A DNA stretch of 33,978 bases from a virus. The translations under genes and the position numbers were made by a program. Below are positions 8,772-33,978 of the stretch, piece after piece. The stretch's first letter is position 1. Every line of letters begins with the position of its first letter. The stretch lies in IMG/VR virus record IMGVR_UViG_3300029868_000015; one strand, 5' to 3'. Under the pieces are notes generated by a model that saw nothing but the letters and a program-made list of their open reading frames with translations, was not told the origin of the DNA and made no database searches.

Positions 8772-9505
8772 TGGCAGATTTTACAGGTAATTCAATCGCA
8801 GATACTTACAAACGAGTGTTGCAGATCGGCGTGGATAATACCGGCGTTTCTGCAACACTACAGGACGTAGAAGACGGCGCGGGCGCAACAACGGCTTTGC
8901 AGCTGTCAACTAAAGCAGTCGTTTTCCAAAACGGCGGCACAGCGGAAGAATATGCTAGATTTAATGACAACGGCAAGTTATTGATGAACAATCCGGTAGC
9001 GTTAACCACTGGGCAGGGTTTCTCGTCTTCCCTTCAGTTAAACGGCTTGAATGGTAGCGATGCTAGCTTGTCAATTGCGCGATCTTCTGACAATACAGGC
9101 GGCACATTCTTATCTGGAAATAAGTCTAGGGGTACATTAGCTGCTCCGACTATTGTAGTGGACGGCGATAATATATTCAACATCACCGCAGCAGTACACA
9201 ACGGTACAGATTTTGACAATCCAGCGGTCCAAATGCGCTTTGTTGTTGAAGGCACTGTAACGCCCGGCGCGTCTTCGCAACCAGGAATGTTAGAAATAAC
9301 CAATGGTAGCGTTACGTCAGCTAGGTTTCATGGTGACAGTTACTTCGAAGTGCTTTTAGGAATTGTTAACGCCGTGTTTACAAACGGCTCAAGGCCTTCG
9401 GCTTCTTCTGTACGTGCAGGCACTGAGATTTGGAACAGCGACGACAAGTTTTCTAATACTTCAGACGGTTCTGACTGGTATGATCCTGCGGGGAACATCA
9501 CCTAA
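8771..9505 (+). CDS. Tail needle / fibre-like protein (candidate)
   Basis: 244 aa with a TAATG overlap. G/S/T/N-rich and beta-type. The call is positional. Confidence 0.35.
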   Translation: MADFTGNSIADTYKRVLQIGVDNTGVSATLQDVEDGAGATTALQLSTKAVVFQNGGTAEEYARFNDNGKLLMNNPVALTTGQGFSSSLQLNGLNGSDASLSIARSSDNTGGTFLSGNKSRGTLAAPTIVVDGDNIFNITAAVHNGTDFDNPAVQMRFVVEGTVTPGASSQPGMLEITNGSVTSARFHGDSYFEVLLGIVNAVFTNGSRPSASSVRAGTEIWNSDDKFSNTSDGSDWYDPAGNIT

Positions 9506-9918
9506 TGCCTGATATTGCCATAGGATATGACGAGCAAGTTCGGGATTGGGTTTCTAATGAGCTTGGCCTTGAAAAGATAGGCGGCGATATGTTTGCGGCT
9601 ATTGGCATTGCTGAAGACGGTGAGCTAATAGGCGGCGCTGTGTTTCATGATTACCGAGAACACATGATTGAAATGAGCTTTGCGTCAACGTCTCCTACGT
9701 GGTGTTCTAAGAAGATACTAAAGGCTATATTTGATTATCCTTTTAATCAGCTTGGCGTTACTCGGATAAACGCAGTTTGCGCTAAAGGTAATAAGAAGAT
9801 GCGGCTAACAGTTAAACGAATTGGGTTCAAACAAGAAGGCTGCGCCCGCAAAGGGTATGACGGAAAGCAAGACGCTGTATTGTACGGCATGCTAAATAAA
9901 GATTGTAACTGGAATTAG
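9505..9918 (+). CDS. GNAT-fold N-acetyltransferase-like protein (RimJ/RimL-like pattern)
   Basis: 137 aa. The stretch ...LKAIFDYPFNQLGVTRINAVCAKGNKKMRLTVKRIGFKQEGCARKGY...DAVLYGML matches the recalled Acetyltransf_3 core pattern (yaF..lgl.Ri.a.v...N..s.rl.ek.GF..EG..R). Confidence 0.55.
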   Translation: MPDIAIGYDEQVRDWVSNELGLEKIGGDMFAAIGIAEDGELIGGAVFHDYREHMIEMSFASTSPTWCSKKILKAIFDYPFNQLGVTRINAVCAKGNKKMRLTVKRIGFKQEGCARKGYDGKQDAVLYGMLNKDCNWN

Positions 9919-9921
9919 AAA

Positions 9922-11169
9922 ATGGGTAAAAGCTCACCAACACCACCACAAGCGCCGAATCCTATCGCCATTGCAGGCGCGCAGGGTGAAGCTAATATCG
10001 AGTCGGCAATTGCTAGCGCCATACTCAACCAACAGAATGTTGTTGGCCCTGAAGGGACTGTAAGCTTCGCACAGACGGGCGGCCAGAATGTTGGCGGTCA
10101 ATTTGTCCCTTCCTTCACGCGAACCACGCAGCTAACACCTGAAGCACAAGCTCAGTTTGAAGCACAGCAGCAACTTGGCGGCGCTCTTACTGGACTAGCA
10201 CAAGGACAAGTCGGCAGGATTGAAGGCGCATTAGGACAAGGCATTGACACTTCAGGATTGCCGGGCCTCGCTGGTGGCGCTCAAGGTGGCGCTATAACGG
10301 GCGGCATTGATACGTCCGGCTTACAACAAGTTCGTCAAGATTTCGGGCAGCAAGGCCAAGAGCTTGAGCAGGCCACCTTCCAGCGGGGGCTTAACTTACT
10401 ACGTCCGGAACTTGCACGACAGCGTGGCGATGTTGAACGGCTTGTCAGTGAGCGGGGGCTTCCTATAGGCTCTGAAGCCGCACAGAACAGATTATTCTCG
10501 CCGTTTGAAGAACGCAGAAACCAAGCGTTAGAAAACCTTGCTTTAAGCTCTGTAGGCGCAGGCCGTCAAGAACAAGCTAGATTGTTCCAGCAGGGTTCCC
10601 AGCAAAGAGGGCAGCAGTTCGGCGAACAAAGCGCAGGCGCACAGTTTGCAAATCAGGCTCAAAACTTAGGGTTTAATCAGGCTCTAGCAAGTGGACAGGC
10701 AGCAAATGCAGCAAGGGCGCAAGGCTTCCAAGAGCAAGCTTTCCAGCGTTCAATACCAATTAACGACATTGCCGCATTGCTCGGTACGGCTCCAGGTGTG
10801 CAGGCTCCGCAGTTCCAGGCAACGCCAGCCTTCGGTGTACAAGCTCCTGACGTTATCGGGGCTAGTCTAGGAGCTGCTAATATTGCACAGCAGCAGTTTG
10901 CACAACAGCAGCAACAAAGCAGCGGCTTACTTGGTGGTCTATTTAACCTTGGTGGATCTTTAGGATCGGCGGCCATTCTCTCAGATCGCAGGCTAAAAGC
11001 TAACGTTCGCAAGATCGGTAAAACATCTAAGGGCTTCAATCTCTACAGCTACATTAAAAACGGCATTGAAGAGATCGGCGTGATGGCGCAGGAAGTAATG
11101 CAAACCCTACCTGAAGCGGTTGTAATTAAAGACGGCTATTATGCTGTAATTTACAATGAGGTGACATAA
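9922..11169 (+). CDS. Q/G/A-rich virion protein with a C-terminal Peptidase_S74-like (intramolecular chaperone, self-cleaving) domain
   Basis: The C-terminal 62 aa, SDRRLKANVRKIGKTSKGFNLYSYIKNGIEEIGVMAQEVMQTLPEAVVIKDGYYAVIYNEV, fit the S74 pattern (SDxRLK...GxxAQEv..v.PeaV). The N-terminal 350 aa are low-complexity, with GIDTSGL repeated twice. Confidence 0.7.
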   Translation: MGKSSPTPPQAPNPIAIAGAQGEANIESAIASAILNQQNVVGPEGTVSFAQTGGQNVGGQFVPSFTRTTQLTPEAQAQFEAQQQLGGALTGLAQGQVGRIEGALGQGIDTSGLPGLAGGAQGGAITGGIDTSGLQQVRQDFGQQGQELEQATFQRGLNLLRPELARQRGDVERLVSERGLPIGSEAAQNRLFSPFEERRNQALENLALSSVGAGRQEQARLFQQGSQQRGQQFGEQSAGAQFANQAQNLGFNQALASGQAANAARAQGFQEQAFQRSIPINDIAALLGTAPGVQAPQFQATPAFGVQAPDVIGASLGAANIAQQQFAQQQQQSSGLLGGLFNLGGSLGSAAILSDRRLKANVRKIGKTSKGFNLYSYIKNGIEEIGVMAQEVMQTLPEAVVIKDGYYAVIYNEVT

Positions 11170-12338: not shown

Positions 12339-14149
12339 TGGCAGATCAAAAAGACATACTTGAGGCGCTGCGCCGGGGATTGATAACGGAAGCGGAGGCA
12401 AAGCGAAGGCTTGCAGGCCCGCAACCTGATATTGAAGCGCCCGCCGAAGCATTAACGCAGCCGGGAGAACCTGCGCCACAGCTTCGGCAGCGCAAGGGAG
12501 CTTTTGAAGCTGCGGGCCAAGAGGTCAGAAAGTTTGTAGGTGAAGAATTTGGTCTTGACCCTGAAAACGCTAGAGCTGTAACTAGCTTTCTTCGGAGAGG
12601 CAATTTACCTGCTGGCCTAGATACAATTGCGCAAGCTTTATTAAATACAGGTGTACAAGCTGGTGAACTTATCGGCGGGGCAACTATAGGCGGCGCTAGT
12701 CTATTGGGTGATGTTTTAGGTTCCGTAATACCCGGCGCTACACCGGAACAAGGGCGGCGTGAGGCTCTTGCTTTCACTGAAACAGCGTTTCCCCCTTCCC
12801 GTGCAGCAGCTATCCCAAGAATCGCAGCCCGTACAGCACGAAGAGCGCCAGAGCTAGCACAAGCTAGGCGCGGTCAAGAGATTGTTGAAGCTGGTGAACA
12901 GGCCGGCGTTCCGGTTCTTACTACTGATATTCGCCAGCCACAAACTGCAATTGGTAAGATCGCACGCTCTACCGCTGAAAAGGTTCCTTTCGGTGCAGGC
13001 ACAGGACCAGCAAGGGCAGCACAGCAAGAAGCACGCGTAACTGCAACTGAAGACATTCTTCGGGAGTTTGGAGCAACCGCAGACGCACCGCTAGAAGCTC
13101 GTATAATCGAAGGTCTTTCACAAACACAGAAAGCCAGCCAAGCCAGAGCCGCAACAATACGCACGCAAGCTGTTGATAGCTTAAACCAGTTTGGTGATGT
13201 TCCTACAAAGAGCGCAACCAGCGAAATTGCACAGCAAATTGCACGGGAAGAAGGCCTAGGGACACTAGCAAGGCAAGACCTTTTGCAAAGGCTACGTTCT
13301 GTTGATGGCGCTTTAGGTGGTGACTTTGAACTATTAACCCGTGTTCGTAGTGAGGTTATCAGCGACATAGAACAACTATCCAGAGGCCAGCACTCAGTTT
13401 TAATTCAGCGTGACGCTTCAGCACTGCGGAAAGTCAAAGCGGCAATTGACAAGGACTTGCAGACATTCGCTAAAGCAAACGATCCAGAAGCAGCGGCTAA
13501 GTTCACTAAATCCAATGAGTTGTTTGCAGAAGAGTTTAGTAAGTTCAAGCGCAGCGAATTGCGTAACGTTCTTTCTAGGGGTGAAACCACACCTGAAGTG
13601 GCGGCTCAAGTTCTTAGAGGCGGCAAGACAAGCGAGCTAGAACGTTTAGCTAGTAATGCCGGGCAAGAAGGACGCGCAGCAGCAAGGGCGGCTATTATTC
13701 GGGATGCAGTAAATAAAGCTGGCGGGTTTATTAATTTAAATCCTGACAGAATTACTAACGAGTTCCTGAAGCCAAACACACAGAAAGCTATTAAGGCCTT
13801 CTTTAAAGGTGACGACAGGAAGAGGTTAGACGGCTTTGTTAAGCTCCTTGATGCCACTAGAGAAGCACAAAGGGCTGCAACTACCACACCTACAGGTCAA
13901 CAGTTAATCCCGTTTGCAACAGGCGGTGCGGCCATTGTAGACCCACTATCAACATTTATCGGGGTTGCAGGCATTGGCGGAGCTGGCAGAGCATACGAGA
14001 GCAAAGCCTTTAGAGACTTCTTATTGCGGGCAGCTAATACACCTAAAGACACACGGCAGTTTAACGAGCTAGCGGCAAACTTTGCGGCAGCATTAAACGA
14101 TGCAGTTACAGCAACGCAGCTAGCACAATCAGCAGGGGCGGAACAATGA
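12338..14149 (+). CDS. Internal virion / ejection protein (candidate, largest)
   Basis: 603 aa, A/R/E-rich and helical-looking, with a TAATG overlap. It is the last large gene before the membrane/spanin genes, as with P22 gp16. Confidence 0.4.
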   Translation: MADQKDILEALRRGLITEAEAKRRLAGPQPDIEAPAEALTQPGEPAPQLRQRKGAFEAAGQEVRKFVGEEFGLDPENARAVTSFLRRGNLPAGLDTIAQALLNTGVQAGELIGGATIGGASLLGDVLGSVIPGATPEQGRREALAFTETAFPPSRAAAIPRIAARTARRAPELAQARRGQEIVEAGEQAGVPVLTTDIRQPQTAIGKIARSTAEKVPFGAGTGPARAAQQEARVTATEDILREFGATADAPLEARIIEGLSQTQKASQARAATIRTQAVDSLNQFGDVPTKSATSEIAQQIAREEGLGTLARQDLLQRLRSVDGALGGDFELLTRVRSEVISDIEQLSRGQHSVLIQRDASALRKVKAAIDKDLQTFAKANDPEAAAKFTKSNELFAEEFSKFKRSELRNVLSRGETTPEVAAQVLRGGKTSELERLASNAGQEGRAAARAAIIRDAVNKAGGFINLNPDRITNEFLKPNTQKAIKAFFKGDDRKRLDGFVKLLDATREAQRAATTTPTGQQLIPFATGGAAIVDPLSTFIGVAGIGGAGRAYESKAFRDFLLRAANTPKDTRQFNELAANFAAALNDAVTATQLAQSAGAEQ

Positions 14150-14391
14150 TTATAATAGGCACAATATTCCACATCATCATAGGGCTTGGCTTAAGCTTTA
14201 TATTCTCTCCAGTAGCCATTGCGTTGTTCTTCTGGTTCAAAGAGGTAGGCGAGGCGAAACATAAGGTTAAAGGCTCTATCAAGACCATCAAGAAAAACCT
14301 TGAAATGGTAGCTTATCCGTTCAGGCCTAAAATGTTACCGCAATGGATACTCCCTGGCGTTGGCGCTTACCTGCTGCAATTAGCATTCTAA
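14146..14391 (+). CDS. Small membrane protein (holin candidate)
   Basis: 81 aa with at least two hydrophobic segments (IIIGTIFHIIIGLGLSFIFSPVAIALFFWF, and LPGVGAYLLQLAF at the C-terminus). An ATGA overlap joins it to the upstream gene. Confidence 0.5.
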   Translation: MIIIGTIFHIIIGLGLSFIFSPVAIALFFWFKEVGEAKHKVKGSIKTIKKNLEMVAYPFRPKMLPQWILPGVGAYLLQLAF

Positions 14392-14576
14392 TGGACGATA
14401 AGTATAAAAACTCTCGGCGGTTTGCCGTTGTGTTGTACGGCGTGGTGACTGCTTTAATGATACTCGCTATATACATTATGGGCGAAAAGGCAGCGCCAAT
14501 CCTGACTACAACGCTCCCAACAATGTTATTGCACGCTATGGCCTATTCTCACACGACGAACAAAGGTGATAAATAA
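14391..14576 (+). CDS. Small membrane protein (holin/antiholin candidate)
   Basis: ATG at 14391 in a TAATG overlap (the track start 14343 is upstream and less likely). 61 aa with the TM segment FAVVLYGVVTALMILAIYIM. Confidence 0.5.
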   Translation: MDDKYKNSRRFAVVLYGVVTALMILAIYIMGEKAAPILTTTLPTMLLHAMAYSHTTNKGDK

Positions 14577-15058
14577 TGATGGCCGCCCTTTCATTCATAA
14601 CGTCAATGTTCGGTTCGAGTAAAACCGGCATTATGTTTGTGATCGGTGCAGTTGCGGCTATTGGTTGGGGCATGTACTATATGACCGATAAGGCGTATGA
14701 TGCTTTGTTGGTTGATAGCGCTAAGAAGATCGAACGCGCAGAGCAAAACACGCGAACAGTTGAAGGCGTTTTAAAGGCCACCAACGCGTCACTAGATCAA
14801 TTGAGGCTAGATAGGTTAGAAGACTACAAGCTTAAGATACAGCAGGACGTAGAACGGGCGCAAGACAGGAAAGAACTTGCAGACCTTCAGAACAAGCTGA
14901 ACAGTTATCGGAAGAGGTGGGCGAATGTTGCAAATAAGAAACCTGAGCTTCTTGCTCGTATTATCAACCGTGCTACTCGTAAGCGGGTGCGGGAAATCCA
15001 AGCTGCCACCTGTAGAGCGAATTGTAACCCAGACGAAAATAGTTCAAACGGTTCCTAA
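14576..15058 (+). CDS. i-spanin (Rz-like)
   Basis: N-terminal TM segment (GIMFVIGAVAAIGWGMYYM) followed by a charged coiled-coil region. A lipoprotein gene in another frame overlaps its 3' end. Confidence 0.6.
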   Translation: MMAALSFITSMFGSSKTGIMFVIGAVAAIGWGMYYMTDKAYDALLVDSAKKIERAEQNTRTVEGVLKATNASLDQLRLDRLEDYKLKIQQDVERAQDRKELADLQNKLNSYRKRWANVANKKPELLARIINRATRKRVREIQAATCRANCNPDENSSNGS

Positions 15059-15314
15059 TCCTGGCAATCTACCAGATGAAGTAACGCCGCGAGAGTTTGC
15101 AGAGTTTGAGATTATAACGCAGGCAAATATTCATTCGATCATTGAAAAGGTAGAATCTGGCGAAAGAGCACCCTTGAATCACGTAGCAATCGAATACACA
15201 TACTATCTAGAGCTAGCGGCATGGATGGCAGCAATACAGAAATATATTGACCAAGCCGACCCAATGCTTAAACGTTGGCAAGCTCTCTACCGCGAAAGTT
15301 TAGAGAAGAAGTAG
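14925..15314 (+). CDS. o-spanin (Rz1-like outer-membrane lipoprotein), overlapped architecture
   Basis: Signal peptide with a lipobox (LLVSGC), a proline-containing mature N-terminus and the SD GAGGTG. It overlaps the last 134 nt of the i-spanin gene in a different frame. Confidence 0.6.
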   Translation: MLQIRNLSFLLVLSTVLLVSGCGKSKLPPVERIVTQTKIVQTVPNPGNLPDEVTPREFAEFEIITQANIHSIIEKVESGERAPLNHVAIEYTYYLELAAWMAAIQKYIDQADPMLKRWQALYRESLEKK

Positions 15315-15353
15315 TTTTTGTTCCGAGTATTTACTATAACAAAGGAGTAAGTT

Positions 15354-15449
15354 ATGCTTGACATTACAATGAGCGACCCTGAGGACGATCTGGAAGACGG
15401 CGGCACAGCACCAGGGCCACCAATTGACCCAGATCCGGACGGTGACTAA
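15354..15449 (+). CDS. Tiny acidic ORF (31 aa, MLDITMSDPEDDLEDGGTAPGPPIDPDPDGD)
   Basis: ATG lies 6 nt after the strong SD AAGGAG. Too short for the ORF track, so read by hand. Confidence 0.35.
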   Translation: MLDITMSDPEDDLEDGGTAPGPPIDPDPDGD

Positions 15450-15527
15450 CGTGTCTAGCGACGGAAAAAGGGGCGGCACAGTTCGAAAGCCCCCGAAGAA
15501 ACCAACAAAAAAGAAGACTGTGAAAAA

Positions 15528-16208
15528 ATGACCTTATTCGACATAGCACAATATGCACCTCACGCTTTACTGGTGCTGTGCTGTGTCGGCATGGCTGGGT
15601 TGCCCGGCCCAACGCTCCAAAAGCCTAATACATGGCACATGACCATGATTATCATTGCAGGGTTCAGCGCGTTTAATATGGGTGCAGCCCATGTATACGG
15701 TTACTTCATGGGACAAGAATACGGCGATTCTCTATACAGCGAATACGGTTTAAAGGAGGGGTATAACCTCTGGCAGATGACATTCGCCTATATATATTCG
15801 TTCCTTGCATTCTTGGAATTAGCCACATTTAAGATGGTTCGCAAGTATTCACAGAAGGGTAGAACGTCCATAGCGTTCCTTATGGCGGCGTTTATCTCTG
15901 TCAACCTAGCCACTATAGTTTCCCTTTTAGCTAGAATTACAAAAGTAGATACTATTGAAGTGTTTAGTTTTAATATACTTAGTGCAACTAACAGTATATA
16001 TTCCAACTATGAGCAATCGATATTGTTTTTAAATATACTACAAATACTCGTCTTATTGGGAGCTTGCAGTGGATGGTCAAGAGGTGATGCTAGTAGGAAC
16101 ATACGGGGGTTTGTATCCTTTGTATGTGGTGGCGGTAATTTTGGCGGGCTGCGTCCTATCTTTAATTCAATACGGCATAAAAGGCCTAGTCAAGGAGTGG
16201 CGACGTGA
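15528..16208 (+). CDS. Multi-pass membrane protein (function unknown)
   Basis: 226 aa with several hydrophobic segments. The gene body is visibly more AT-rich than the neighbouring virion genes. The last 46 aa look non-native and overlap the next ORF. Confidence 0.55.
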   Translation: MTLFDIAQYAPHALLVLCCVGMAGLPGPTLQKPNTWHMTMIIIAGFSAFNMGAAHVYGYFMGQEYGDSLYSEYGLKEGYNLWQMTFAYIYSFLAFLELATFKMVRKYSQKGRTSIAFLMAAFISVNLATIVSLLARITKVDTIEVFSFNILSATNSIYSNYEQSILFLNILQILVLLGACSGWSRGDASRNIRGFVSFVCGGGNFGGLRPIFNSIRHKRPSQGVAT

Positions 16209-16257
16209 TAGGGCTGAAGCTAGAGAGCGTATTAATCGGGATCGGGATGACGGGTAG
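16069..16257 (+). CDS. Small single-TM protein with a highly charged C-terminus
   Basis: GTG 16069 follows the SD GGGAG. Contains the TM segment LYPLYVVAVILAGCVLSLI and then KEWRRDRAEARERINRDRDDG. It is embedded in another frame of 15528..16208. Confidence 0.45.
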   Translation: MDGQEVMLVGTYGGLYPLYVVAVILAGCVLSLIQYGIKGLVKEWRRDRAEARERINRDRDDG

Positions 16258-16456
16258 CTTATTTTCGGCTCTACTTGCAGACCTTAACGAAAACGCCGCA
16301 GCATACGGGTTAATAATTTCATTATGCATAGGGTTGATTGGTGTTATAATCCACGCCATACGAGGTGAAATCAACACAAGAGTAACAAAGAGAAACGCCC
16401 TGCTTACCAGAAAAGAACAGGCTCGGCACAATAGGGCGATTGAAGAAGCTAATTAG
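16247..16456 (+). CDS. Small membrane protein with a charged C-terminus
   Basis: Starts at ATG 16247 (alternative GTG 16205). Contains the TM segment YGLIISLCIGLIGVIIHAI and then a basic tail. It is the last gene of the rightward block. Confidence 0.5.
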   Translation: MTGSLFSALLADLNENAAAYGLIISLCIGLIGVIIHAIRGEINTRVTKRNALLTRKEQARHNRAIEEAN

Positions 16457-16776: not shown

Positions 16777-17079
16777 CTAACTCCTTGCAATACTGCCCTC
16801 AAGATCCAGACCTTCAGCTTTTGATAGAGCGGCTTCAGTGTGAATATGTGAAGACCTGTATTGGCGTTTGTGGTTCCACTTTGCCAGCCTAAGGAATATA
16901 CCTGTTGTCTTCTCAATTCGTGCGAGTAAACAAGCGGTGACTTCCTTTTCACGCTTGGCAGTCTTAGCGCCCCATTCCTTGTCTCGTTCGGTTTGTGCGT
17001 GCTGTACAGCCTTAAGTGTGCGGTCAAACTCGCCGTCTTTTGTATATCCGCCCAGCAGTTTAATTAAAAAGTCTCTCAT
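16777..17079 (-). CDS. Hypothetical protein (100 aa)
   Basis: ORF preceded by a 38-nt gap. No motif recognised. Confidence 0.5.
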   Translation of the reverse strand: MRDFLIKLLGGYTKDGEFDRTLKAVQHAQTERDKEWGAKTAKREKEVTACLLARIEKTTGIFLRLAKWNHKRQYRSSHIHTEAALSKAEGLDLEGSIARS

Positions 17080-17117
17080 CGTCTCGCCTCTCTCTAGTTA
17101 ACTTAAATCTGGTTAAT

Positions 17118-22141: not shown

Positions 22142-22299
22142 CCGAGCTAGAAAGATTTAAGCACGACATTGACCAGCAGATAATTGCGCTGGAGGGTTAT
22201 CTTTTAGGCAAAGGCCAAACCCAGGCGGTGCGGGAACTGATGTTTCAGAAGCAGCGATTTGACCAAATTATGAACGAACAAATAAAGGGCGAGATATGA
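22138..22299 (+). CDS. Small hypothetical protein (53 aa)
   Basis: Hand-translated as MTELERFKHDIDQQIIALEGYLLGKGQ.... ATGA overlaps are present at both ends. Confidence 0.45.
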   Translation: MTELERFKHDIDQQIIALEGYLLGKGQTQAVRELMFQKQRFDQIMNEQIKGEI

Positions 22300-23105
22300 G
22301 CGAATTAAATATACACCAGCGGATTGCAGCAGTTATGCAGGCTATCGCATACGTGCAAAAAGAGAATAAAAAGGTCAACAATCAGTACACGTTTGTTAGC
22401 CATGACGCCGTTACAGCGGCAGTGAGAACGCACCTTATTGATAACGGTATCGTTGTTATCCCCACGGTGACAAAGCATATACAGGACGGCAACAGGACCG
22501 AGGTAGATTTAAACATCGACTTCGTGAACATTGATAAACCTGAAGACAAGATTTCAGTGCAGATGTTCGGCTATGGTGTTGACCAACAAGACAAGGGGCC
22601 GGGCAAGGCTTTCTCATACGCAAAGAAATACGCCTTCCTGCAATTGTTCCTCTTGGAAACTGGCGACGATCCAGAGCGTGACAACATTGACCACAGGAAA
22701 ACATCGCGCACGAAAACAGCGGTTCACAAGGATATGAAAGCCGCAGCGTTTAAGATGACACAGACCGCAACCATTGAAGCGTTTGAAAGCTTCTTGGCTG
22801 GTGACGGGTTCCAAAAGCTGATTAAAGAGTTACGCAGTGAATGGCCTGAAGAATTTCAAGGCTTGCGTGAAGAGAAGGACAAGCACAAGAAACGCCTTGA
22901 GGCTGGCCCAAAGCTCACCAGTGAAGATATACAGCTCTATATAGAGAAGTTCACTAAAGACCTTAGCTCTGAATTTGATGCTGGAATGTGCGCGGAAATG
23001 TTTAAGATAGCCAAGAACGACCTGTTAAAAGCTGCCGCAACTGGCGAGCAAATCCATGAGGTCGAGGTTGCTTATGATGAACACATACAGCGCTTAGGTG
23101 ATTAA
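22296..23105 (+). CDS. erf: ERF-family single-strand annealing recombinase
   Basis: The N-terminal 130 aa (IHQRIAAVMQAIAYVQKENKKVNNQYTFVSHDAVTAAVRTHLIDNGI...GPGKAFSYAKKYAFLQLFLLETGDDPE) match the recalled ERF domain pattern. Confidence 0.75.
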   Translation: MSELNIHQRIAAVMQAIAYVQKENKKVNNQYTFVSHDAVTAAVRTHLIDNGIVVIPTVTKHIQDGNRTEVDLNIDFVNIDKPEDKISVQMFGYGVDQQDKGPGKAFSYAKKYAFLQLFLLETGDDPERDNIDHRKTSRTKTAVHKDMKAAAFKMTQTATIEAFESFLAGDGFQKLIKELRSEWPEEFQGLREEKDKHKKRLEAGPKLTSEDIQLYIEKFTKDLSSEFDAGMCAEMFKIAKNDLLKAAATGEQIHEVEVAYDEHIQRLGD

Positions 23106-25511: not shown

Positions 25512-25765
25512 GTAAACGGTACGAATATAAAAAAGATATTTACATTGAAGCCTACCCACTAGAAGACGTCCTGAATAAAGAAGGTGGTGAAGGTTGGCGT
25601 GCGATAAAGGTGGAAGGCAACGAACTTAGAGGCGATATACTTTTTGAACGGGAAATAATAGAACAAGACACACAATACACGGACTTCTTGCGATCATTAC
25701 TCGGAACCGATGAAGCAATTTCACTTGCTGAAGCCACAAGAGAATACTGGGGGCGAGACAAATGA
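25508..25765 (+). CDS. Hypothetical protein (85 aa)
   Basis: GTG 25508 is in a GTGA overlap (junction GTGAGTAA). The track start 25466 is upstream. Confidence 0.5.
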   Translation: MSKRYEYKKDIYIEAYPLEDVLNKEGGEGWRAIKVEGNELRGDILFEREIIEQDTQYTDFLRSLLGTDEAISLAEATREYWGRDK

Positions 25766-27043: not shown

Positions 27044-27400
27044 ATGATATTCGAAAGAAAGAGAGTTAGCAAAGATTATTTATACAAGGCAATAGAAACG
27101 CTAAACGGCACATTAAACCGCTATGCGTCGGTAATTGAGATAGCAAAATATTTAAACTGTGAGCCTGAAGCATTATCAAGGCCGCTGCATTTATTGGTGG
27201 CGAAAGGATTAATCAAACATGACATACAAGATGGGTTATTTTTCCGCGTGGTACCGAAGCACTTTGTTAAGGCGAAGGCTAAGAAAACTAGAAAAGTTGG
27301 TAGACCGCTTAGCAAGAAAGATGCAAACGGAAAGCTAATACACCTTAAAAGATACAACGAATATGGGCTTAAGATAATTCAAGGGCATGTTGTATTATAG
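27044..27400 (+). CDS. Winged-helix DNA-binding protein with a basic C-terminal region (late regulator candidate)
   Basis: YASVIEIAKYLNCEPEALSRPLHLLVAKGLI is wHTH-like. It is followed by KAKAKKTRKVGRPLSKK. This is the last gene before the tailspike cluster. Confidence 0.45.
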   Translation: MIFERKRVSKDYLYKAIETLNGTLNRYASVIEIAKYLNCEPEALSRPLHLLVAKGLIKHDIQDGLFFRVVPKHFVKAKAKKTRKVGRPLSKKDANGKLIHLKRYNEYGLKIIQGHVVL

Positions 27401-27484
27401 CAACGCAAGGAAAAAGTTATTGTTAACCGCGTTCATATAAAGGGGTTTAGATAGTTCTGTAATATTTGTTCTGAGTTAATATTT

Positions 27485-28726
27485 ATGAGGCGAGACGTTA
27501 TATTGGAAACAATCATGACGGTATACCAATTCGTAGGCGGTGAACTCGCTTCAAGTAGTGATACAGAGATACTAGTGCAGAAAGCCTCCGACCTAGCAGG
27601 TACACTAAGGAGCGACGTTGCCTATTTAATTGACGGCAGCATTGATATGGGTAGCCAATCCATAATAGTTCCGCAGGGTGGTTTAACCTTGATGGGGAAT
27701 GGTTTCAATATCGCACAGCTAACAACCAGCGTAACCAACGCAACTCTATTTGTAGACGATGGTGTTTTTGCTGGAGATTTATTCCTTCGCATGATGGATA
27801 TTGAAGTTACAGGAACCGGCGCGAAAGTGTTTGACCTAGATAATAACGAAAATTCTGACGCGATAGAATTTGACGCTGTTAACTTCAATAATTGCACAAG
27901 CCTTGGTTCAATGGATAGCTACAGGCAGCTACTTGCGAGAAACGTTGCATTCTTTGCCCCTGCTGACGGGCTGGAATTTATCGGCCCGTGGTCCGGTGGT
28001 TTAGCTATTGTTGACACAATTGTAATTCTATTGCCATCTGGCGCAACATTATTTAAAGCTGGTACGGGTTTCCTTGTGGGCGCAAGTGTTCGCTCAGATA
28101 TGAACGCGTTATCAGTAGATGCCAGTTCAACTATATTTGACTTTGCACCATCTAACATCACCCCTGATGGTGGGTTCTCATTAAGCAACTTCAGAACAGC
28201 CGCAGACGATGCATTGCCTAATTTCCCCTCTTCTAGTGTGAAGGCTAATTTCTCAAACTGTATTGGTATTAGTAACACATTCCCTGGCGGCAACTGGTCT
28301 ATATCCAGCGCTGCAACAACCACAATCGGAATGGTTGACACATTAGTTAAGCTTGCAGGAACCACCACATACAACGGGTTGCAGTGGTTTACAGGTTCGA
28401 ACAACAATGAGTTTGTTTTTGAGTCCACACAGGAAATTGACATTGTTGTTTCTGGTATATTGACCTTCACAGGCGGCGCTAACGATGAGATGGCCGTGCA
28501 GATACGAAGGTTTGACGATAGCGCAAGTTCATACGTAAATGTAGGTTCAGAGTTTAGCACTACTATCAGTTCAGGAGGCAGGGCCTCAAATTTACCGTTT
28601 AGAGGTGTAACAACCGTAGCAGAGAATGACCGTATTGAAGTATGGGTTAAGAACCTGACGGATGACACAGATATAACTGGATCAGTCGGCGGTAGTGTAG
28701 CCATTGGCGAGCGCTCATCTGTATAG
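27485..28726 (+). CDS. Tailspike / receptor-binding protein with a beta-helix-like repeat pattern
   Basis: About 400 aa, rich in G/N/S/T/V/I beta-strand periodicity (…IIVPQGGLTLMGNGFNIAQL…IEVTGTGAKVFDLDN…AVNFNNCTSLG…). The start is uncertain, with ATG 27515 as an alternative. Confidence 0.5.
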   Translation: MRRDVILETIMTVYQFVGGELASSSDTEILVQKASDLAGTLRSDVAYLIDGSIDMGSQSIIVPQGGLTLMGNGFNIAQLTTSVTNATLFVDDGVFAGDLFLRMMDIEVTGTGAKVFDLDNNENSDAIEFDAVNFNNCTSLGSMDSYRQLLARNVAFFAPADGLEFIGPWSGGLAIVDTIVILLPSGATLFKAGTGFLVGASVRSDMNALSVDASSTIFDFAPSNITPDGGFSLSNFRTAADDALPNFPSSSVKANFSNCIGISNTFPGGNWSISSAATTTIGMVDTLVKLAGTTTYNGLQWFTGSNNNEFVFESTQEIDIVVSGILTFTGGANDEMAVQIRRFDDSASSYVNVGSEFSTTISSGGRASNLPFRGVTTVAENDRIEVWVKNLTDDTDITGSVGGSVAIGERSSV

Positions 28727-29523: not shown

Positions 29524-29751
29524 GTGGGCGAGACAGTGATAAGCGACGGCAAGACCTTCCACTGCCTCTGCATGAGCGGCGCAGGGACAAGTGAGTGCAC
29601 AGAAATCACAGCATTAGGCGTAATAGGCGGCGGAGTTATAATTCGCACGAAGACAACTACAGCAAAAACAGTAGCCGAAGCACTCACTCACCTACCCGGC
29701 GCACACCTCACTGAAGACAACGGCATTATAGCTATTAGCGGTGAAGCGTAA
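29524..29751 (+). CDS. Hypothetical protein (75 aa)
   Basis: GTG start, with a TAATG overlap into terS. Confidence 0.4.
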   Translation: MGETVISDGKTFHCLCMSGAGTSECTEITALGVIGGGVIIRTKTTTAKTVAEALTHLPGAHLTEDNGIIAISGEA

Positions 29752-30167
29752 TGACAGGCAGACCCTCCGCATACACCAAAGAACTAGGTGATGAGATCCT
29801 AGTACGCATATCAGCAGGTGAGAAGATTACTCACATCGCACACGATAAACATATGCCAGCGTTATCAACAATATATTTGTGGAAGTCAGCACAAGAAGGC
29901 TTTTCGGAAGCTTTCGCACATGCGCGAGATGAAGGATGTGATGCAATATCCTTCCAAGCCCTTGAAATTGCTGATGATGTTGACATAGACCCTGCACACA
30001 AGCGGGTTATGGTTGACACTAGATTGAAGCTCTTGGGCATGTGGAGCAACCGCTACAGCGCCAAGCAATCCATAGACCACACCACAGCAGGCAAAGAGAT
30101 AAAGCCCGCACAGCAAGCTAGTACAGCAGAGCTTGAGGCCCTTATAGCCTCACACATGAAGAAGTAG
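29751..30167 (+). CDS. terS: Terminase small subunit
   Basis: GRPSAYTKELGDEILVRISAGEKITHIAHDKHMPALSTIYLWKSAQEGFSEAFAHARDEG...IADDVD...RLKLLGMWSNRYS matches the recalled TerS pattern GRP.kYt.e.a..Ic..la.G.sl..ic.....P...tv..W......F...y..Ar. Confidence 0.75.
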   Translation: MTGRPSAYTKELGDEILVRISAGEKITHIAHDKHMPALSTIYLWKSAQEGFSEAFAHARDEGCDAISFQALEIADDVDIDPAHKRVMVDTRLKLLGMWSNRYSAKQSIDHTTAGKEIKPAQQASTAELEALIASHMKK

Positions 30168-30194
30168 GCTAAGGGTTGTCCCCCTTAAAAGCGC

Positions 30195-30225
30195 GTTCCC
30201 GTCCGTGTAGCCGAAGGCGGGGAAC
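30195..30225 (+). other. Imperfect hairpin after terS (part of repeated element X1)
   Basis: GTTCCC (30195-200) pairs with GGGAAC (30220-25). An inner stem GCC-gaa-GGC is also present. Confidence 0.5.
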
Positions 30226-30239
30226 AAAAAGGACAAGCT

Positions 30240-30551
30240 ATGATAGACAAAGGAATATTCGACCAGAAGCATGTGTGGGTGCCGTTTCGTGACGGCTGGC
30301 ATTTCACGAGCGCACGTAACTCTGGCGGTGACGTTGAGCTTTTGATAGGAGCTAGGGCTTGGGATAAAGAGGGTGGTTGGGAAGGAAACCAATTCACATG
30401 GTCTTTCATTGGCCCGCTGTTTTCTGCCAAAAAAGAACATGTTGCCTCAACGATGTCTGAGAATGGAATTGAGATAACAGGCGAAGAGATTGCAGACATT
30501 GCGCTGAAGGTTAAAGAGCTATTCCCTAAAGCCAAGATGAATATTAACTAA
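30240..30551 (+). CDS. Hypothetical protein (103 aa)
   Basis: ORF in the track with the SD-like aaaaagga upstream. Confidence 0.55.
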   Translation: MIDKGIFDQKHVWVPFRDGWHFTSARNSGGDVELLIGARAWDKEGGWEGNQFTWSFIGPLFSAKKEHVASTMSENGIEITGEEIADIALKVKELFPKAKMNIN

Positions 30552-30565
30552 CGTAAGGGCGGAAA

Positions 30566-30982
30566 ATGAGAAGCACATCAAAGAACGACATTACATTCTC
30601 TGTGAACAAGGACGGCGATAATAACCGCTTTTGGGCTGGCAATTACAAGGTTGTCTGCAAAAAAGGTGAGGATTTCCAATGGGGTCCGGCTGATTTCACC
30701 TTTCAACTGGTAGACATGACATTCGAGGCAGACCCTAGCATGGACGGTACGCATGTGTTTATTATCAACTGGGCTGTAGCATCTAAAGACATAATGAAAC
30801 CTATAGAGATAGCCGGCCCAGAGGTGCCTGATGCAGGCCGTGACTTCATGATAGGTGAGGACTTCACGCTAGACGATCTAAACAAGCAGCTAGCACCACT
30901 CCTTACCTTTGACCGTGCAGACGCTAACTTAATGCTAGAGATGGTTAAACATCTTGGCGGTCCAGATATTACAATAGGCTAA
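30566..30982 (+). CDS. Hypothetical protein (138 aa)
   Basis: ORF in the track with the SD-like aagggcgg upstream. Confidence 0.55.
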   Translation: MRSTSKNDITFSVNKDGDNNRFWAGNYKVVCKKGEDFQWGPADFTFQLVDMTFEADPSMDGTHVFIINWAVASKDIMKPIEIAGPEVPDAGRDFMIGEDFTLDDLNKQLAPLLTFDRADANLMLEMVKHLGGPDITIG

Positions 30983-31041
30983 GGGCGACGGCATAGCGTC
31001 CTCGTATGCACCTCCGCAGTGTTAGCCGAAGCGGGAAGATT

Positions 31042-31066
31042 AAGCCTCTCACGGGGCTTTTTCTTT
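31042..31066 (+). terminator. Intrinsic terminator candidate
   Basis: The stem AAGCCTC / GGGGCTT (31042-48 and 31053-59, 7 bp including one G-U pair) has the loop TCAC and runs into TTTTTCTTT. Confidence 0.6.
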
Positions 31067-31070
31067 GTCT

Positions 31071-31490
31071 GCCGTGCAAGTATCTTATAGGATATTAAAG
31101 ATATAACCCGCTGTAAGACCGGAAAGCATCAGAAATCTTTTAGATTGCCCTTGTATTCCTGTTTTGAAGGCGTATATTAGGATGGTAACGAGCGGCGTTG
31201 AAAGTAGAAACGCAGTAGGTTTGTGAGAGGGTAAGCATCCTTTGGGCGATGCAGGGTTGCCGATGAATGGATCGAAGCCATACTGATGACCACAATACGG
31301 AGGCAGCAAGCCCTAGTAACGCGGGGCCTCGTTACAAGTTCTGAGTATGTATTGAGTAAGGTGTGTGCAGATGATCAGATACCAGAGGAAGTAGGCAAAA
31401 TAGCGATAGCATTAGCCTGACCGGAAGCCAGAGACTGTTCATTAATGCCGGGCCGCACACCGCTCACCACATCAAACACAGAGGCGAGAC
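31071..31490 (+). other. 420-nt noncoding, stem-rich region between terS and terL (candidate structured RNA, promoter/leader or packaging-related site)
   Basis: No credible ORF on either strand. Five or more stems were read by eye. Promoter candidate: TTGTAT (31151-56), 16-nt spacer, TATATT (31173-78). Confidence 0.4.
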
Positions 31491-31814
31491 ATGAGTGACT
31501 TTGAGACAGATGATTTTGAAATGTATTGGGACCCTGATGGGCTTGGTGTAAGCGTACGTGATTATGAGGGGTCGGCGTTCGCTCTACTCACTAGAGATGA
31601 GTCTAGGTGGCTCCTAGGGTGGCTACAGGCCAACCAACATGAAGACAATCACGAATACAAGCTAGGCGACAAGGGCCTCACCACCAGAGGCATTGCATAC
31701 GAGATCGTAGCTACAGATCCTGTGCGTGTCCACATGGGAGGCAATGACATGCAGCTAGAGGGTATGAAAATAGAGCTGCTGCCACCTACGGGAAATGTAG
31801 CAGACGGGGATTAA
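31491..31814 (+). CDS. Strongly acidic hypothetical protein (107 aa)
   Basis: ATG immediately follows GAGGCGAGAC, the same leader as terL. Rich in D/E. Confidence 0.55.
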   Translation: MSDFETDDFEMYWDPDGLGVSVRDYEGSAFALLTRDESRWLLGWLQANQHEDNHEYKLGDKGLTTRGIAYEIVATDPVRVHMGGNDMQLEGMKIELLPPTGNVADGD

Positions 31815-31827
31815 TGGGAGAGAGGCG

Positions 31828-31992
31828 ATGAGTATAGTTACATGTGTGCGTGATTGGCACAGGCGGGGCATATTTCACGAAGACCTGAATACAAGCAATC
31901 ATGACGGCTGCGACTTGGTTATGACTAATGACGGGCGGATGGTTCGCAATTACGATGTGATTTACAAGAACGCATGGAACATCAAGCGATGA
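31828..31992 (+). CDS. Small hypothetical protein (54 aa)
   Basis: Hand-translated as MSIVTCVRDWHRRGIFHEDLNTSNHDGCDLVMTNDGRMVRNYDVIYKNAWNIKR. The SD is GAGAGG. Confidence 0.4.
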   Translation: MSIVTCVRDWHRRGIFHEDLNTSNHDGCDLVMTNDGRMVRNYDVIYKNAWNIKR

Positions 31993-32174
31993 CCTTTGTA
32001 GACAAGCTAGCAGAAGCAGGCTTCACCAGTAAGCGCCAGTTTGCCATGTACGTTAATTACACACCGCAGGCCGTGAGCGATTGGAAAGAGAAGCCCCCGC
32101 ACTGGGCGCACATCATCTTGGATGACCGCATAAGAGACCAGGTATTGATCAAACTCATACAGCAGGGGTTATAA
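31989..32174 (+). CDS. Small HTH DNA-binding protein (Cro/YdaS-like)
   Basis: ATG 31989 is in an ATGA overlap. FTSKRQFAMYVNYTPQAVSDWKEKPP fits an HTH pattern. Confidence 0.5.
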   Translation: MTFVDKLAEAGFTSKRQFAMYVNYTPQAVSDWKEKPPHWAHIILDDRIRDQVLIKLIQQGL

Positions 32175-32341
32175 TGGACTATTCAACATACGTTCTATTC
32201 ATTGCCATAGTAGCCATTGGCTTCATCAACTACGAGCAAACAGCCCACCGCAGCTTTTGGCGCATAATCGAAACTCAAGTGTTGTTCACGTGCTTTTTAA
32301 TCATAGCGTGGTTATGCTGGCAGGTGGCTTGGTTTGATTGA
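32174..32341 (+). CDS. Small two-TM membrane protein (55 aa)
   Basis: Hand-translated as MDYSTYVLFIAIVAIGFINYEQTAHRSFWRIIETQVLFTCFLIIAWLCWQVAWFD. A TAATG overlap joins it to the upstream gene. Confidence 0.45.
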   Translation: MDYSTYVLFIAIVAIGFINYEQTAHRSFWRIIETQVLFTCFLIIAWLCWQVAWFD

Positions 32342-32342
32342 T

Positions 32343-32831
32343 ATGAAACTATTAGCTTTATTGCTGATGTTAAGTGCCTGCGCTGTATATCCGCAGTCTG
32401 ATGCAGTTAGGGGCGTTGCGAGGGCTGAGTTGATCCCAGGTGCCGTGAGGCCTTCCAACATATACGAGTTAGAGCATACGATTGAGGCTTATGATTGTCT
32501 TGGTGGGTGGTCTCACCAGTTTAAAAATCTAGCCGACTATGCAGTGAAGACCGGAAAAATGGTAAGATGGCACGGTAACGTTTTCAGCGCCTGTACTGTA
32601 ATGGCCGACAGGATACGGGATAAGGGCGGCAATCAGTGCCTTGTGTCTAATCGGGTTAATTTCGGATACCATCAGGCCCGTGATAATGCAGGAAACTATA
32701 GCTCAAACATAAGTTACCGAGATGATACAAAAGCATGGATCAAAAAACAGGGCGGCATGAAAAAAGGCAACAACCTGTTAATCATGAAGGGTGCAGAGCT
32801 GCTAAAGTTCTACAAGATGTGCAATGGTTAA
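32343..32831 (+). CDS. Lipoprotein (162 aa), function unknown
   Basis: MKLLALLLMLSAC has a signal peptide and a lipobox (L-S-A-C). The track start 32334 is an upstream TTG. Confidence 0.6.
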   Translation: MKLLALLLMLSACAVYPQSDAVRGVARAELIPGAVRPSNIYELEHTIEAYDCLGGWSHQFKNLADYAVKTGKMVRWHGNVFSACTVMADRIRDKGGNQCLVSNRVNFGYHQARDNAGNYSSNISYRDDTKAWIKKQGGMKKGNNLLIMKGAELLKFYKMCNG

Positions 32832-33045
32832 AGTTGGAGACAAAATAGAATGCTGCGGTAATCACATGATAACCATGATTAAGCCGGTTAAAAGCTGTGA
32901 ACCGCTAATCGCTCATAAATGGGCTTATGCTAACGGTGATGTCATTAAGTTTGGCGAAGCTATCAAGATGTGCCCGACTTGCGGTAATATGGATTGGTTT
33001 AATTTACTGCGATTAAGGATCGGTGACGAGAATAAAGATGTGTGA
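32824..33045 (+). CDS. Small Cys-rich (zinc-ribbon-like) protein (73 aa)
   Basis: Contains CC at residues 10-11 and CPTC near the C-terminus. Confidence 0.5.
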   Translation: MVKVGDKIECCGNHMITMIKPVKSCEPLIAHKWAYANGDVIKFGEAIKMCPTCGNMDWFNLLRLRIGDENKDV

Positions 33046-33120
33046 ATAGAGCATTACTAAATAAACTCTTTGGGTTGGCGCTAGGTGATATATACTAGTG
33101 TCAACACATGGAGGCGAGAC

Positions 33121-33978
33121 ATGAACATAGAAGAAGCAGCTAAAGAGCTGTTGAGGCGCAGGCGGGCAGAGGCAGGCCTGATAGATTTCACACGGTATAC
33201 ATTCCCAAAGTACCGACCTGCCGACCACCATTTCCAAATAGCGGCAAAACTTGAAGCTGTAGAGCGTGGCGACATTAAACGCCTGATGATATTTATGCCA
33301 CCTCGTCACGGTAAGAGTGAGCTAGCATCAAAGCGCTTCCCTGCATGGTGCCTTGGCCGTGATCCAGATAAGAACTTCATATCAGCATCATACAACTCAG
33401 AGCTTGCTGGTGATTTTGGCCGTGAGGTTAGAAACATCATTCAAGAGGAAGAATATGCAAACCTGTTTCCGAATACCAGCATTGCAAAGGATAGCGGATC
33501 TGCACCACGCTGGCACACTAACGGGCTAGGTGGATATGTTGCGGCGGGTATTGGTACAGCGGTTACAGGCCGGGGCGCTCACATCTTCACCATTGATGAC
33601 CCGATTAAAGACAGAGAACAGGCAGAGAGCGAAACCCAACGGCGCAGAATTTACGACTGGTACAAGTCAACAGCCTACACACGCCTGGAATCAGAACTAA
33701 GCGGTGAAGTAACAGAGGAAGACCTGTTTTGGGACGTGTCTGCATCACTTAGGGAAGGGTTAATCAAGCCATTCGAGGGCGCAATCGTTCTAATTCAAAC
33801 ACGATGGCATGAAGACGATCTAGCAGGCAAGCTGATAACCGACATGGAGAACGGGGCGGATCAGTGGGAAATACTAGACCTTCCAGCAATACAGGACAAT
33901 CAAGCGCTATGGCCTTCAAAGTACCCACTTGATAAGCTCCAGAAGATTAAAGCCGCAATTGGTGCAAGGGAATGGTCG
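33121..33978 (+). CDS. terL: Terminase large subunit, N-terminal (ATPase) part. It is open to the window end and continues at 120..791.
   Basis: Hand-translated as MNIEEAAKELLRRRRAEAGLIDFTRYTFPKYRPADHHFQIAAKLEAVERGDIKRLMIFMPPRHGKSELAS.... Walker A-like PRHGKS, Walker B-like HIFTIDDP, and TRWHEDDL are present. There is no stop before the end of the window. Confidence 0.9.
   Translation, partial: MNIEEAAKELLRRRRAEAGLIDFTRYTFPKYRPADHHFQIAAKLEAVERGDIKRLMIFMPPRHGKSELASKRFPAWCLGRDPDKNFISASYNSELAGDFGREVRNIIQEEEYANLFPNTSIAKDSGSAPRWHTNGLGGYVAAGIGTAVTGRGAHIFTIDDPIKDREQAESETQRRRIYDWYKSTAYTRLESELSGEVTEEDLFWDVSASLREGLIKPFEGAIVLIQTRWHEDDLAGKLITDMENGADQWEILDLPAIQDNQALWPSKYPLDKLQKIKAAIGAREWS
33860..33978. 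repeat. Terminal direct repeat, right copy (identical to 1..119)
   Basis: Read directly. Confidence 0.95.

Follow-up and report, generated by a model that had tools for sequence, protein, structure and literature searches.

The 33,978-nucleotide (nt) virus record IMGVR_UViG_3300029868_000015, referred to below in its whole length as the window, is a circular phage contig with a 119-bp exact terminal direct repeat (1-119 = 33860-33978) and hence a true length of 33,859 bp. The subject of this analysis is the interval between its small and large terminase genes, terS and terL, in which two open reading frames (ORFs), orfA and orfB, and a terminator are followed by ~420 nt of noncoding DNA and then by six small genes, i1 to i6 (31491-33045), all on the + strand with ends that overlap or nearly abut. 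Since the contig is circular, terL continues at 120-791; the contig ends are joined inside the gene (33121-33978 + 120-791), whose full product has 509 amino acids (aa). A preliminary description had treated 31471-33124 as an accessory island, inserted as one block and bracketed by a duplicated terL translation-initiation region. Comparison with related contigs, designated L168, L249, L253, L256 and L257, favours a variable slot whose cargo is exchanged gene by gene. The features of the locus are as follows.

29751..30167, + strand: terS, Sf6-type small terminase gene (PF20901, 1.9e-22; phrog_1482), with a 66% aa homolog in L253
30240-30551, + strand: orfA, without family match; present in L256 (95% nt), not in L253
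30566-30982, + strand: orfB, without family match; missing from L253 and L256; weak PADLOC homing-endonuclease match (E = 0.012)
31042..31068, + strand: intrinsic terminator closing the terS-containing unit, stem-loop AAGCCTCTCACGGGGCTT plus T-run, kept in L253 and L256
31151..31178, + strand: predicted sigma70-type promoter (TTGTAT, 16-nt spacer, TATATT), just downstream of the conserved terminator
31179..31480, + strand: conserved leader, a probable structured 5′ untranslated region (UTR), with counterparts at L249 9533-9820 and L253 6693-6977
31464..31494, + strand: left copy of the repeat, leader end plus translation-initiation region, TCACCACATCAAACACAGAGGCGAGACATGA, with the exact 14-mer; L253 homology ends at 31471/31472
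31491..31814, + strand: i1, 107-aa acidic protein, pI 4.3, a fusion of two 57-aa genes
31828..31992, + strand: i2, 54 aa, with an 89% aa homolog in L257; ratio of nonsynonymous to synonymous substitution rates (dN/dS) 0.10; no significant family match
31989..32174, + strand: i3, 61-aa helix-turn-helix (HTH) protein, starting at 31989 and not 31974; anchor gene of the locus
32174..32341, + strand: i4, 55-aa membrane peptide, hydrophobic at residues 30-48, with a second, weaker N-terminal segment
32343..32831, + strand: i5, 162-aa lipoprotein with lipobox MKLLALLLMLSAC (LSAC), conserved in L168 and L256
32824-33045, + strand: i6, 73 aa, 5 Cys, inside a 221-bp indel (32814..33042)
33101..33124, + strand: right copy of the repeat, the terL translation-initiation region, TCAACACAT-G-GAGGCGAGACATGA, with the exact 14-mer; L253 homology resumes at 33117
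33121..33978, + strand: 5′ part of terL, ATG at 33121 (Terminase_6N, 1.7e-11; phrog_38, 1e-71)

Relatives were sought by several routes. Scans anchored on terL covered viral, metagenome and genome collections; the matches listed all lay at <=66% aa identity, and L253 (92%) was not among them. L253 (as L252/L253) was retrieved solely via a DNA pattern taken from the leader, L256 and L257 came from a profile search with i3, and L249 from a full-library search with i1. Two pattern scans with the 5′ end of terL gave 0 matches although L253 contains the pattern, so negative scans of viral_contigs are unreliable and do not count as evidence of absence. The region had no megablast match among 50,697 phage records, an nhmmer search of 2.4 Mb of fetched loci for the leader gave no additional copies, and the GC profile of the island is flat, without a compositional anomaly. 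The identical phage (100%) is present in three independent assemblies.

The placement of a variable block between terS and terL, as first proposed, is borne out by distant relatives: among the matches listed, terS abuts terL in 24/24 of those with a detectable terS, and none has genes of the intervening block. L253 is the closest relative found (terL 92% aa, portal 82%, terS 66%) and has the order terS, terminator, promoter and leader, 2.3 kb of unrelated small genes, i3 homolog, 61-aa ORF, terL. By blastn, 31041-31471 of the window corresponds to 6554-6977 of L253 (75%) and 33117-33978 to 9299-10160 (85%); between 31472 and 33117, where L253 holds its 2.3 kb of different genes, the sole match is i3. 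The left breakpoint coincides with the leader end (31472) and the right one (33117) falls inside the right repeat copy, at a place where L253 has no copy, which reproduces the boundaries of the proposed island almost exactly. Lineage-specific material, however, starts not at 31471 but at 30168 with the orfA and orfB cassettes. In L253 the terminator directly follows terS and neither orfA nor orfB is present; the two genes make up another variable spot (30168-30982), located after terS and ahead of the terminator.

Within its boundaries the cargo is a mosaic. The one gene common to five contigs is i3 (L253, 77% aa in a 52-residue tblastn match and 69% over 61 codons; L256, 84%; L257, 77%; L249, 48%), and its neighbours differ. 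In L256 the end of orfA is followed by the terminator and promoter (96.6%), a shorter leader, an 85-aa transmembrane gene, i3, i4 and i5; L257 has a minimal leader, a 40-aa transmembrane gene, i2 and i3; L168 has i5 after an unrelated gene, with i6 missing. In the P22-like L249 the order is regulator, leader, i1N, i1C, transmembrane peptide, i3-like gene, further genes, terS and terL. The i4 homolog in L256 is 53% identical (aa; dN/dS 0.38), and i5 has homologs in two other contigs only (L168, 56-61% aa; L256, 69%; dN/dS ~0.1). Purifying selection (dN/dS 0.08-0.44) shows i2-i5 to be real genes. Identity between the window and L249 is ~99% up to the i1 ATG and then falls abruptly, to ~60% nt (42% aa); this step is a mosaic joint at the start-site motif, and the i1N cassette of L249 is flanked by two copies of that motif.

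Two of the island genes carry the marks of separate events. In a full-library search, residues 1-53 of i1 were matched by P0006 and residues 52-107 by P0004, the products of two genes adjacent in L249. There the half-genes are separated by ACAAAGAGGGCGAGACATGA, and the window lacks exactly these 20 nt (~31640), with ACAA microhomology; this 20-nt deletion removed the intervening start-site motif and so fused the two halves. A further match of i1, to the 1199-aa repeat protein P0005, was treated as a low-complexity artefact. The i5 homolog of L168 ends in ...AAGATGTGTGAATAGAGCA, which equals window 33035-53 at 19/19 positions, while the upstream alignment ends at 32821 and L168 is without i6. 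This match places i6 in a 221-bp indel, which is flanked by the 8-bp direct repeat AAGATGTG (32814-21, 33035-42); no homolog of i6 was found in 5.8 billion proteins. Direct repeats bracket four indels of the locus family: the island (14-24 bp), i6 (8 bp), an insertion in the L253 leader (8 bp) and the i1 fusion (4 bp).

These observations bear on the model of the preliminary description, in which one ~1.6-kb block entered by a single insertion at the terL leader of an ancestor whose noncoding region was joined to terL, duplicating the leader. Such an event would account for a repeat that brackets exactly the stretch differing from L253, for the derivation of the right copy from the leader end (see below) and for the short direct repeats that also flank other indels in the locus. 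It does not fit a composite cargo in which i2, i3, i4-i5 and i6 occur elsewhere in different combinations, i1 is a secondary fusion and i6 a separate indel, nor the cargo in the L253 slot, where terL has no repeat. That description had also suggested looking for an empty site in related phages and for deletion variants; no empty site was found among the contigs, and the three identical assemblies hold no deletion variant. A single insertion as the full account is unlikely, since the genes assort independently; it is one possible step in the history, which leaves the composite cargo and the L253 state unexplained.

The repeat itself was examined within the genome and across relatives. The 14-mer GAGGCGAGACATGA is exact at 31481-31494 and at 33111-33124, as first reported; the left copy does start i1 and the right copy terL, identified by its Terminase_6N and phrog_38 matches. 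A search with the 14-mer at <=2 mismatches gave 4 matches, against 0.14 expected from shuffles. Similarity of the upstream flanks, claimed along with the repeat, is real yet small: the ungapped repeat is 19 nt long with 17/19 identical, and with a 2-nt gap it becomes AACACA plus the 14-mer. The right-copy terL leader can also be written TCAACACAT-GGAGGCGAGAC or TCAACACAT-G-GAGGCGAGAC-ATG.

The same identity might have arisen by convergence, if the two 14-mers were independent instances of a ribosome-binding sequence preferred in this phage group and thus uninformative on recombination. The motif family (A/G)AGGGCGA(G/A)AC-ATG stands at many genes of the genome, and the exact 10-mer GAGGCGAGAC recurs at 27487 (+) and 17090 (-). 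Among 1953 gene-start pairs, the 31481/33111 pair is the sole 10/10 match, with one pair at 9/10 and ten at 8/10, and its local-alignment score of 34 compares with 32 and 31 for the next pairs; a column-independent model of start-site composition predicts 0.036 identical pairs. The repeat is clearly above chance relative to random sequence and modestly so relative to the genome's own start-site composition, and judged from this genome alone it is suggestive, not compelling.

The relatives are more informative. The 9-mer TCAACACAT, which adjoins the right copy and has one occurrence in the genome, is the leader-end version of the relatives (CTCAACACAT/CTCAACACAG in L249, L253 and L256); the window's own leader has TCACCACAT, with one mismatch. 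In every relative the first gene after the leader is headed by G[AG]GG(G)CGAGAC, 0-3 nt and ATG, and such cassette-head motifs lie at 31481 and 33111 in the window, 9821 and 9990 in L249, 8711 in L253, 402 in L256 and 175 in L257. The motif is preceded by CGCTCAACACA in long leaders (L249, L256) and by a shortened GGTGTGCGCACACCACAAG in L257 and at L253 8711; compared with the leader end, the right copy lacks ~7-8 nt (CAAACACA). Because the genome-unique TCAACACAT matches the relatives' leader-end form, the right copy is a shortened duplicate of the leader end and not an independently evolved ribosome-binding site; the two copies, as had been supposed, are truly related. With the L253 and L249 homology breakpoints falling at the motif as well, convergence as the whole explanation is improbable. 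As a footprint of recombination the repeat gains from the short repeats that bracket other indels and loses from the use of its core as a start-site motif at several other genes.

Partial copies elsewhere had been listed at two places, and both exist: GAGGCGAGAC at 27487 and GGCGAGAC at 29527. GGCGAGAC is also found ahead of the start at 25762 and probably of that at 29536. Missing from that list is a minus-strand copy of GAGGCGAGAC at 17090, one base ahead of the ATG that opens ORF 16777-17079. The 27487 copy falls within the spacer between the two hexamers of a promoter-like sequence, TTAATA-17-TATATT (window 27476-27510). Its distance of 18 nt from 27515, the likely ATG of a 413-aa gene, does not suit ribosome binding; the GTTATATTGG that follows it resembles the leader-promoter −10 region. 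Possibly this site is a recombination scar. The 75-aa ORF ahead of terS has its probable start at GTG 29536 (preceded by GGGCGAGACA) rather than at 29524; in precomputed tables the encoded protein shows a weak match to Pfam 'Lockin' (PF26760).

The noncoding region upstream of i1 is more than a passive site. It is occupied by a conserved unit of terminator, promoter and ~300-nt leader (31042-31494), of which the left repeat copy is the 3′ end. Promoter hexamers and the 16-nt spacing are kept in four contigs while the spacer sequence varies (identical hexamers in L256; TTGATT/TATATT in L253; TTGCAA/TATATT in L249), and the predicted −10 lies 313 nt upstream of the i1 ATG. The noncoding stretch is ~95% identical to that of L249 at 31170-31213 and ~99% over ~190 nt ending at the i1 start; for the leader of L253 the identity is 75%. 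In the predicted consensus fold, one pair of the hairpin at 31195-31213 covaries (UA/CG/UG), another stem reads AAU..AUU in the window and AAC..GUU in L253, and a long-range helix joins GUAUUGAGUAAGGUGUGUG (31347-67) to CGCACACCGCUCA.CAC (31454-70). In L256, ~85 nt inside the long-range helix are swapped for unrelated sequence and the helix is kept via a two-sided change from U.G to A-U; in L257 and in the second copy of L253 its arms abut (GGTGTGCGCACACC). Instead of forming the local hairpin 31316-35, CUCGUUAC (31328-35) can base-pair with GUAACGAG (31185-92), and GGTGTG...CACACC arms occur near the ATG, 85 nt apart in the window. Searches of the leader against Rfam (gathering and E-value thresholds) and for tRNA or tmRNA gave no match. 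The leader is probably a structured 5′ UTR and a candidate for a new RNA element. Since there is no terminator between i6 and terL, the unit probably reads into terL.

Two further observations concern the leader and its surroundings. The L253 leader contains, relative to the L256 leader-end form, an insertion of ~140 nt (L253 6972-7126) flanked by the 8-bp direct repeat AACACAGT. A winged-helix regulator is encoded in all three leader-bearing phages (a 118-aa winged-HTH protein at 27044-27400 in the window; L249 9169-9486; L253 2820-3113; 38-48% aa). In L249 it lies immediately upstream of the leader, as Q precedes pR′ in lambdoid phages, and it may control the leader promoter.

Taken together, these findings indicate, with a probability of about 0.7, that 31472-33116 is the current cargo of a hypervariable slot between a portable promoter-leader unit and terL, swapped gene by gene. 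This reading starts from what can be seen directly in the contigs, namely the boundaries, the mosaic cargo, the motif common to the cassette heads of five contigs, the indels at short repeats and the purifying selection on i2-i5. The left border would be a portable expression unit made up of the terminator, the sigma70-type promoter and a ~300-nt leader ending in GAGGCGAGAC-ATG, and the right border would be the terL start codon. Cargo would turn over gene by gene as recombination acts on very short stretches of homology where genes meet, the points of exchange being the leader-end/start-site motif, overlapping stop and start codons and 4-12-bp repeats, and i3 alone would be retained through the exchange. 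The 14-mer would then be the leader end present twice, at the first cargo gene and, shortened, as terL's own ribosome-binding site, with terL of distant relatives lying directly downstream of terS instead. We infer that the repeat arose by cargo recombined in between leader and terL. The predicted promoter is presumed to fire, the leader to act as RNA and i3 to regulate the unit, and the ERF-family annealing protein encoded at 22296-23105 would help recombination at short repeats. Loss of the block by deletion between the two repeat copies is plausible; none was observed in the three assemblies.

Several points weigh against this reading. Given the related start motif at many genes, the identity of the two copies could be partly convergence. 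The terL leader of L253 differs (tttaaggcATG, overlapping the upstream ORF) and no repeat is present there; since the L253 slot nevertheless carries cargo, such a slot can exist without the repeat. No empty site, with the leader joined directly to terL, occurs among the contigs found, and the direction of events is therefore inferred. The comparison comprises five related contigs, three of which are fragments of 0.7-1.5 kb, and the right end of the slot is visible in two genomes. Covariation in the leader comes from three or four sequences. Folded as a single sequence, the leader shows no unusual stability (z = 0.13), and neither does the noncoding region on one strand or the other. A repeat search of the core promoter found no inverted-repeat operator and no local palindrome. 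Finally, no cargo gene matches a known anti-defence, exclusion or defence family in Pfam, PHROG, PADLOC or NCBIfam. Among the island proteins none fell below E 0.01 in PADLOC or NCBIfam or below E 0.03 in Pfam, no library's curated threshold was passed, and the best PHROG match, i3 to phrog_409 (E 1e-4), is sub-threshold; the alternative cargos of the relatives are equally without family matches, except for a BTLCP-type peptidase in L249.

The six ORFs agree with the original list (i1 with pI 4.3, i5 with its lipobox, i6 with five Cys), with the second transmembrane segment of i4 being the weaker one. Our best guess is that the cargo consists of host-interaction genes, directed at the envelope for exclusion in the case of i4/i5 and possibly at host defence in the case of the small soluble proteins. 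Action at the envelope, as superinfection exclusion or receptor masking by i4 and i5 in the manner of Cor, Llp or Sie, is possible if doubtful. It is suggested by the clear lipobox and strong purifying selection of i5, by the joint presence of i4 and i5 in L256, by small transmembrane peptides in every version of the slot (38, 40, 57 and 85 aa) and by secreted proteins, including the BTLCP-type peptidase, in the L249 version. Although i5 resembles Cor/Llp-type exclusion lipoproteins in its signal peptide with lipobox, searches of Pfam, PHROG, NCBIfam and PDB linked it to neither Cor nor Llp nor any other exclusion family. At ~145 aa in its mature form i5 is also much larger than Llp or Cor, the phage shows no sign of a temperate lifestyle, and a lysis-related role of the transmembrane peptides is an alternative.

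Acr-aca loci sit amid morphogenesis and packaging genes in Mu-like Pseudomonas phages, as does the slot here. The acr-aca-like layout noted in the preliminary description gains comparative support from i3, conserved in five contigs amid varying genes. Were the locus an anti-defence operon of this type, i1, i2, i6 and the alternative cargos would inhibit host immunity and i3 would be an Aca-like autorepressor. The likeness lies in a promoter of its own and in variable small co-oriented genes beside one conserved small HTH gene (PMC9410906, PMC6765145, PMC8633003), a combination seen here in five contigs and two unrelated structural backgrounds; in addition, i1 is acidic. The nearest solved fold of i3 is Aca1, at a level that is not significant: an AlphaFold2 (AF2) model gives a confident HTH (pLDDT 85), and its top Foldseek matches, to Aca1 of phage JBD30, have TM scores of 0.57-0.63 with E-values of 0.5-1.4, small HTH folds being generic. 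By sequence (Pfam and PDB searches) i3 belongs to no described Aca family. Its weak matches are to a phrog_409 regulator (1e-4) and to Pfam P22_Cro (0.036, below cut-off), and hmmsearch against PDB returned no Aca, with P22 Cro, the second of two non-significant matches (E = 0.55), as the nearest named solved relative.

Acr-aca promoters carry an inverted-repeat operator in the core, <=~150 bp from the first ATG (PMC9410906), whereas here the promoter is ~310 nt from the first ATG, a ~300-nt conserved leader intervenes and the core promoter has no conserved inverted repeat. Moreover, i3 lies mid-cargo and not at the end. Membrane or secreted proteins, uncommon among Acrs, make up much of the cargo, which includes a lipoprotein and no Acr homolog. 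An anti-defence operon in the full sense is accordingly a doubtful reading. The slot layout is closest to acr-aca, and by analogy the slot may work like such an operon, but it is not to be classed as one.

In its presumed recombination logic the slot comes closest to shuffling mediated by PeSLs (PMC2839356), the composite promoter and terminator stem-loops of which T4-type phages carry many copies in their hyperplastic regions (Arbiol et al. 2010, PMC2839356; PMC4122927). Recombination between nearby PeSL copies is the proposed mechanism there; it could also delete the intervening genes, and mini-circles have been shown (PMC2839356; PMC4122927). In both cases short conserved regulatory sequences border non-essential ORFans; PeSLs bound the insertions, deletions and replacements between close relatives, and the repeated motif of the present locus may do likewise. 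Here, by contrast, the repeated unit is a leader 3′ end plus ribosome-binding site (14-24 nt) in two copies at the locus, with a single terminator-promoter unit (31042-31178) and no repeated promoter and stem-loop motifs. The slot also shares with the hotspots of temperate elements a fixed position between conserved genes and different cargo in related elements, but those hotspots hold recognisable anti-phage defence systems (2022, PMC9122126), whereas the cargo here is tiny ORFans with no PADLOC match.

Another class of comparison is with the morons and conserved gene-boundary sequences of lambdoid phages, reportedly described by Hendrix, Juhala and colleagues and, in 2001, by Clark et al. 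The classic moron consists of a single gene equipped with a promoter and a terminator of its own. The present locus is similar in having extra genes between genes adjacent in relatives (terS and terL), probably a promoter of its own, and mosaic joints at gene boundaries; it differs in that a shared promoter and leader serve a re-assorting multi-gene array running on into terL.

A more far-reaching reading joins these elements. The promoter, the ~300-nt leader and the Aca1-like i3 would constitute a new portable platform that moves between unrelated backbones and gathers counter-defence or exclusion genes at its own ribosome-binding end, the leader RNA itself being a new regulatory element (acting, for example, in processing or antitermination) and i3 the founder of a new Aca-like family. 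The leader-bearing phages do have different backbones, a Pam1-like packaging module in the window and L253 and a P22-like phage in L249. As a whole this extension is unlikely.

Some observations on individual genes and contigs are recorded here separately. The i2 sequence GIFHEDLNTSN...DGRMV resembles a kinase catalytic loop and has a weak NCBIfam Kdo kinase match (E = 0.01); a kinase is ruled out by the 54-aa size, despite strong purifying selection. For i5, a ClpP-like peptidase suggested by motifs was rejected (hhalign probability 0.2%), and the AF2 model is unusable (pLDDT 46) and too poor for a fold search. Assignment of i4/i5 as a spanin or holin pair is unsupported: i5 is a large globular Cys-containing lipoprotein without a C-terminal transmembrane segment, and other transmembrane proteins are encoded at 14146-16456. 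In L253, GCTGCTGAT-type repeats (L253 8180-8310) encode a long tract rich in Ala and Asp within the 252-aa cargo protein. The 580-bp contig L083 (sample TULL18-1) is 100% identical to window 31400-31911 and then continues into unrelated sequence (L083 513-580) inside i2; this 68-nt divergent tail is probably a low-coverage assembly chimera and could be a variant junction. The assembly of sample TULL18-1 also breaks at 31400-31410. A protein identical to i3 (P0007) is deposited in NCBI under a 'Flavobacteriales bacterium' metagenome-assembled genome. The strong Shine-Dalgarno-type start sites of the phage presumably speak against a Bacteroidota host, which makes the binning of that genome doubtful.

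The slot, situated upstream of terL in an uncultivated phage, adds a good new case to a class of phage variable regions that is already known. It offers a fine-scale view of how small phages may gain and lose ORFans, singly, at start/stop junctions and 4-14-bp repeats, downstream of a reusable promoter-leader. The leader, a candidate new RNA element, belongs to no Rfam family, is ~99% identical across different structural modules and carries compensatory changes. Together, i3 and the leader provide a handle for mining metagenomes for more slot cargo, much as anti-CRISPR and other counter-defence genes were discovered, and if the portable platform proved true, i3 would represent a new Aca-like family usable in guilt-by-association mining.

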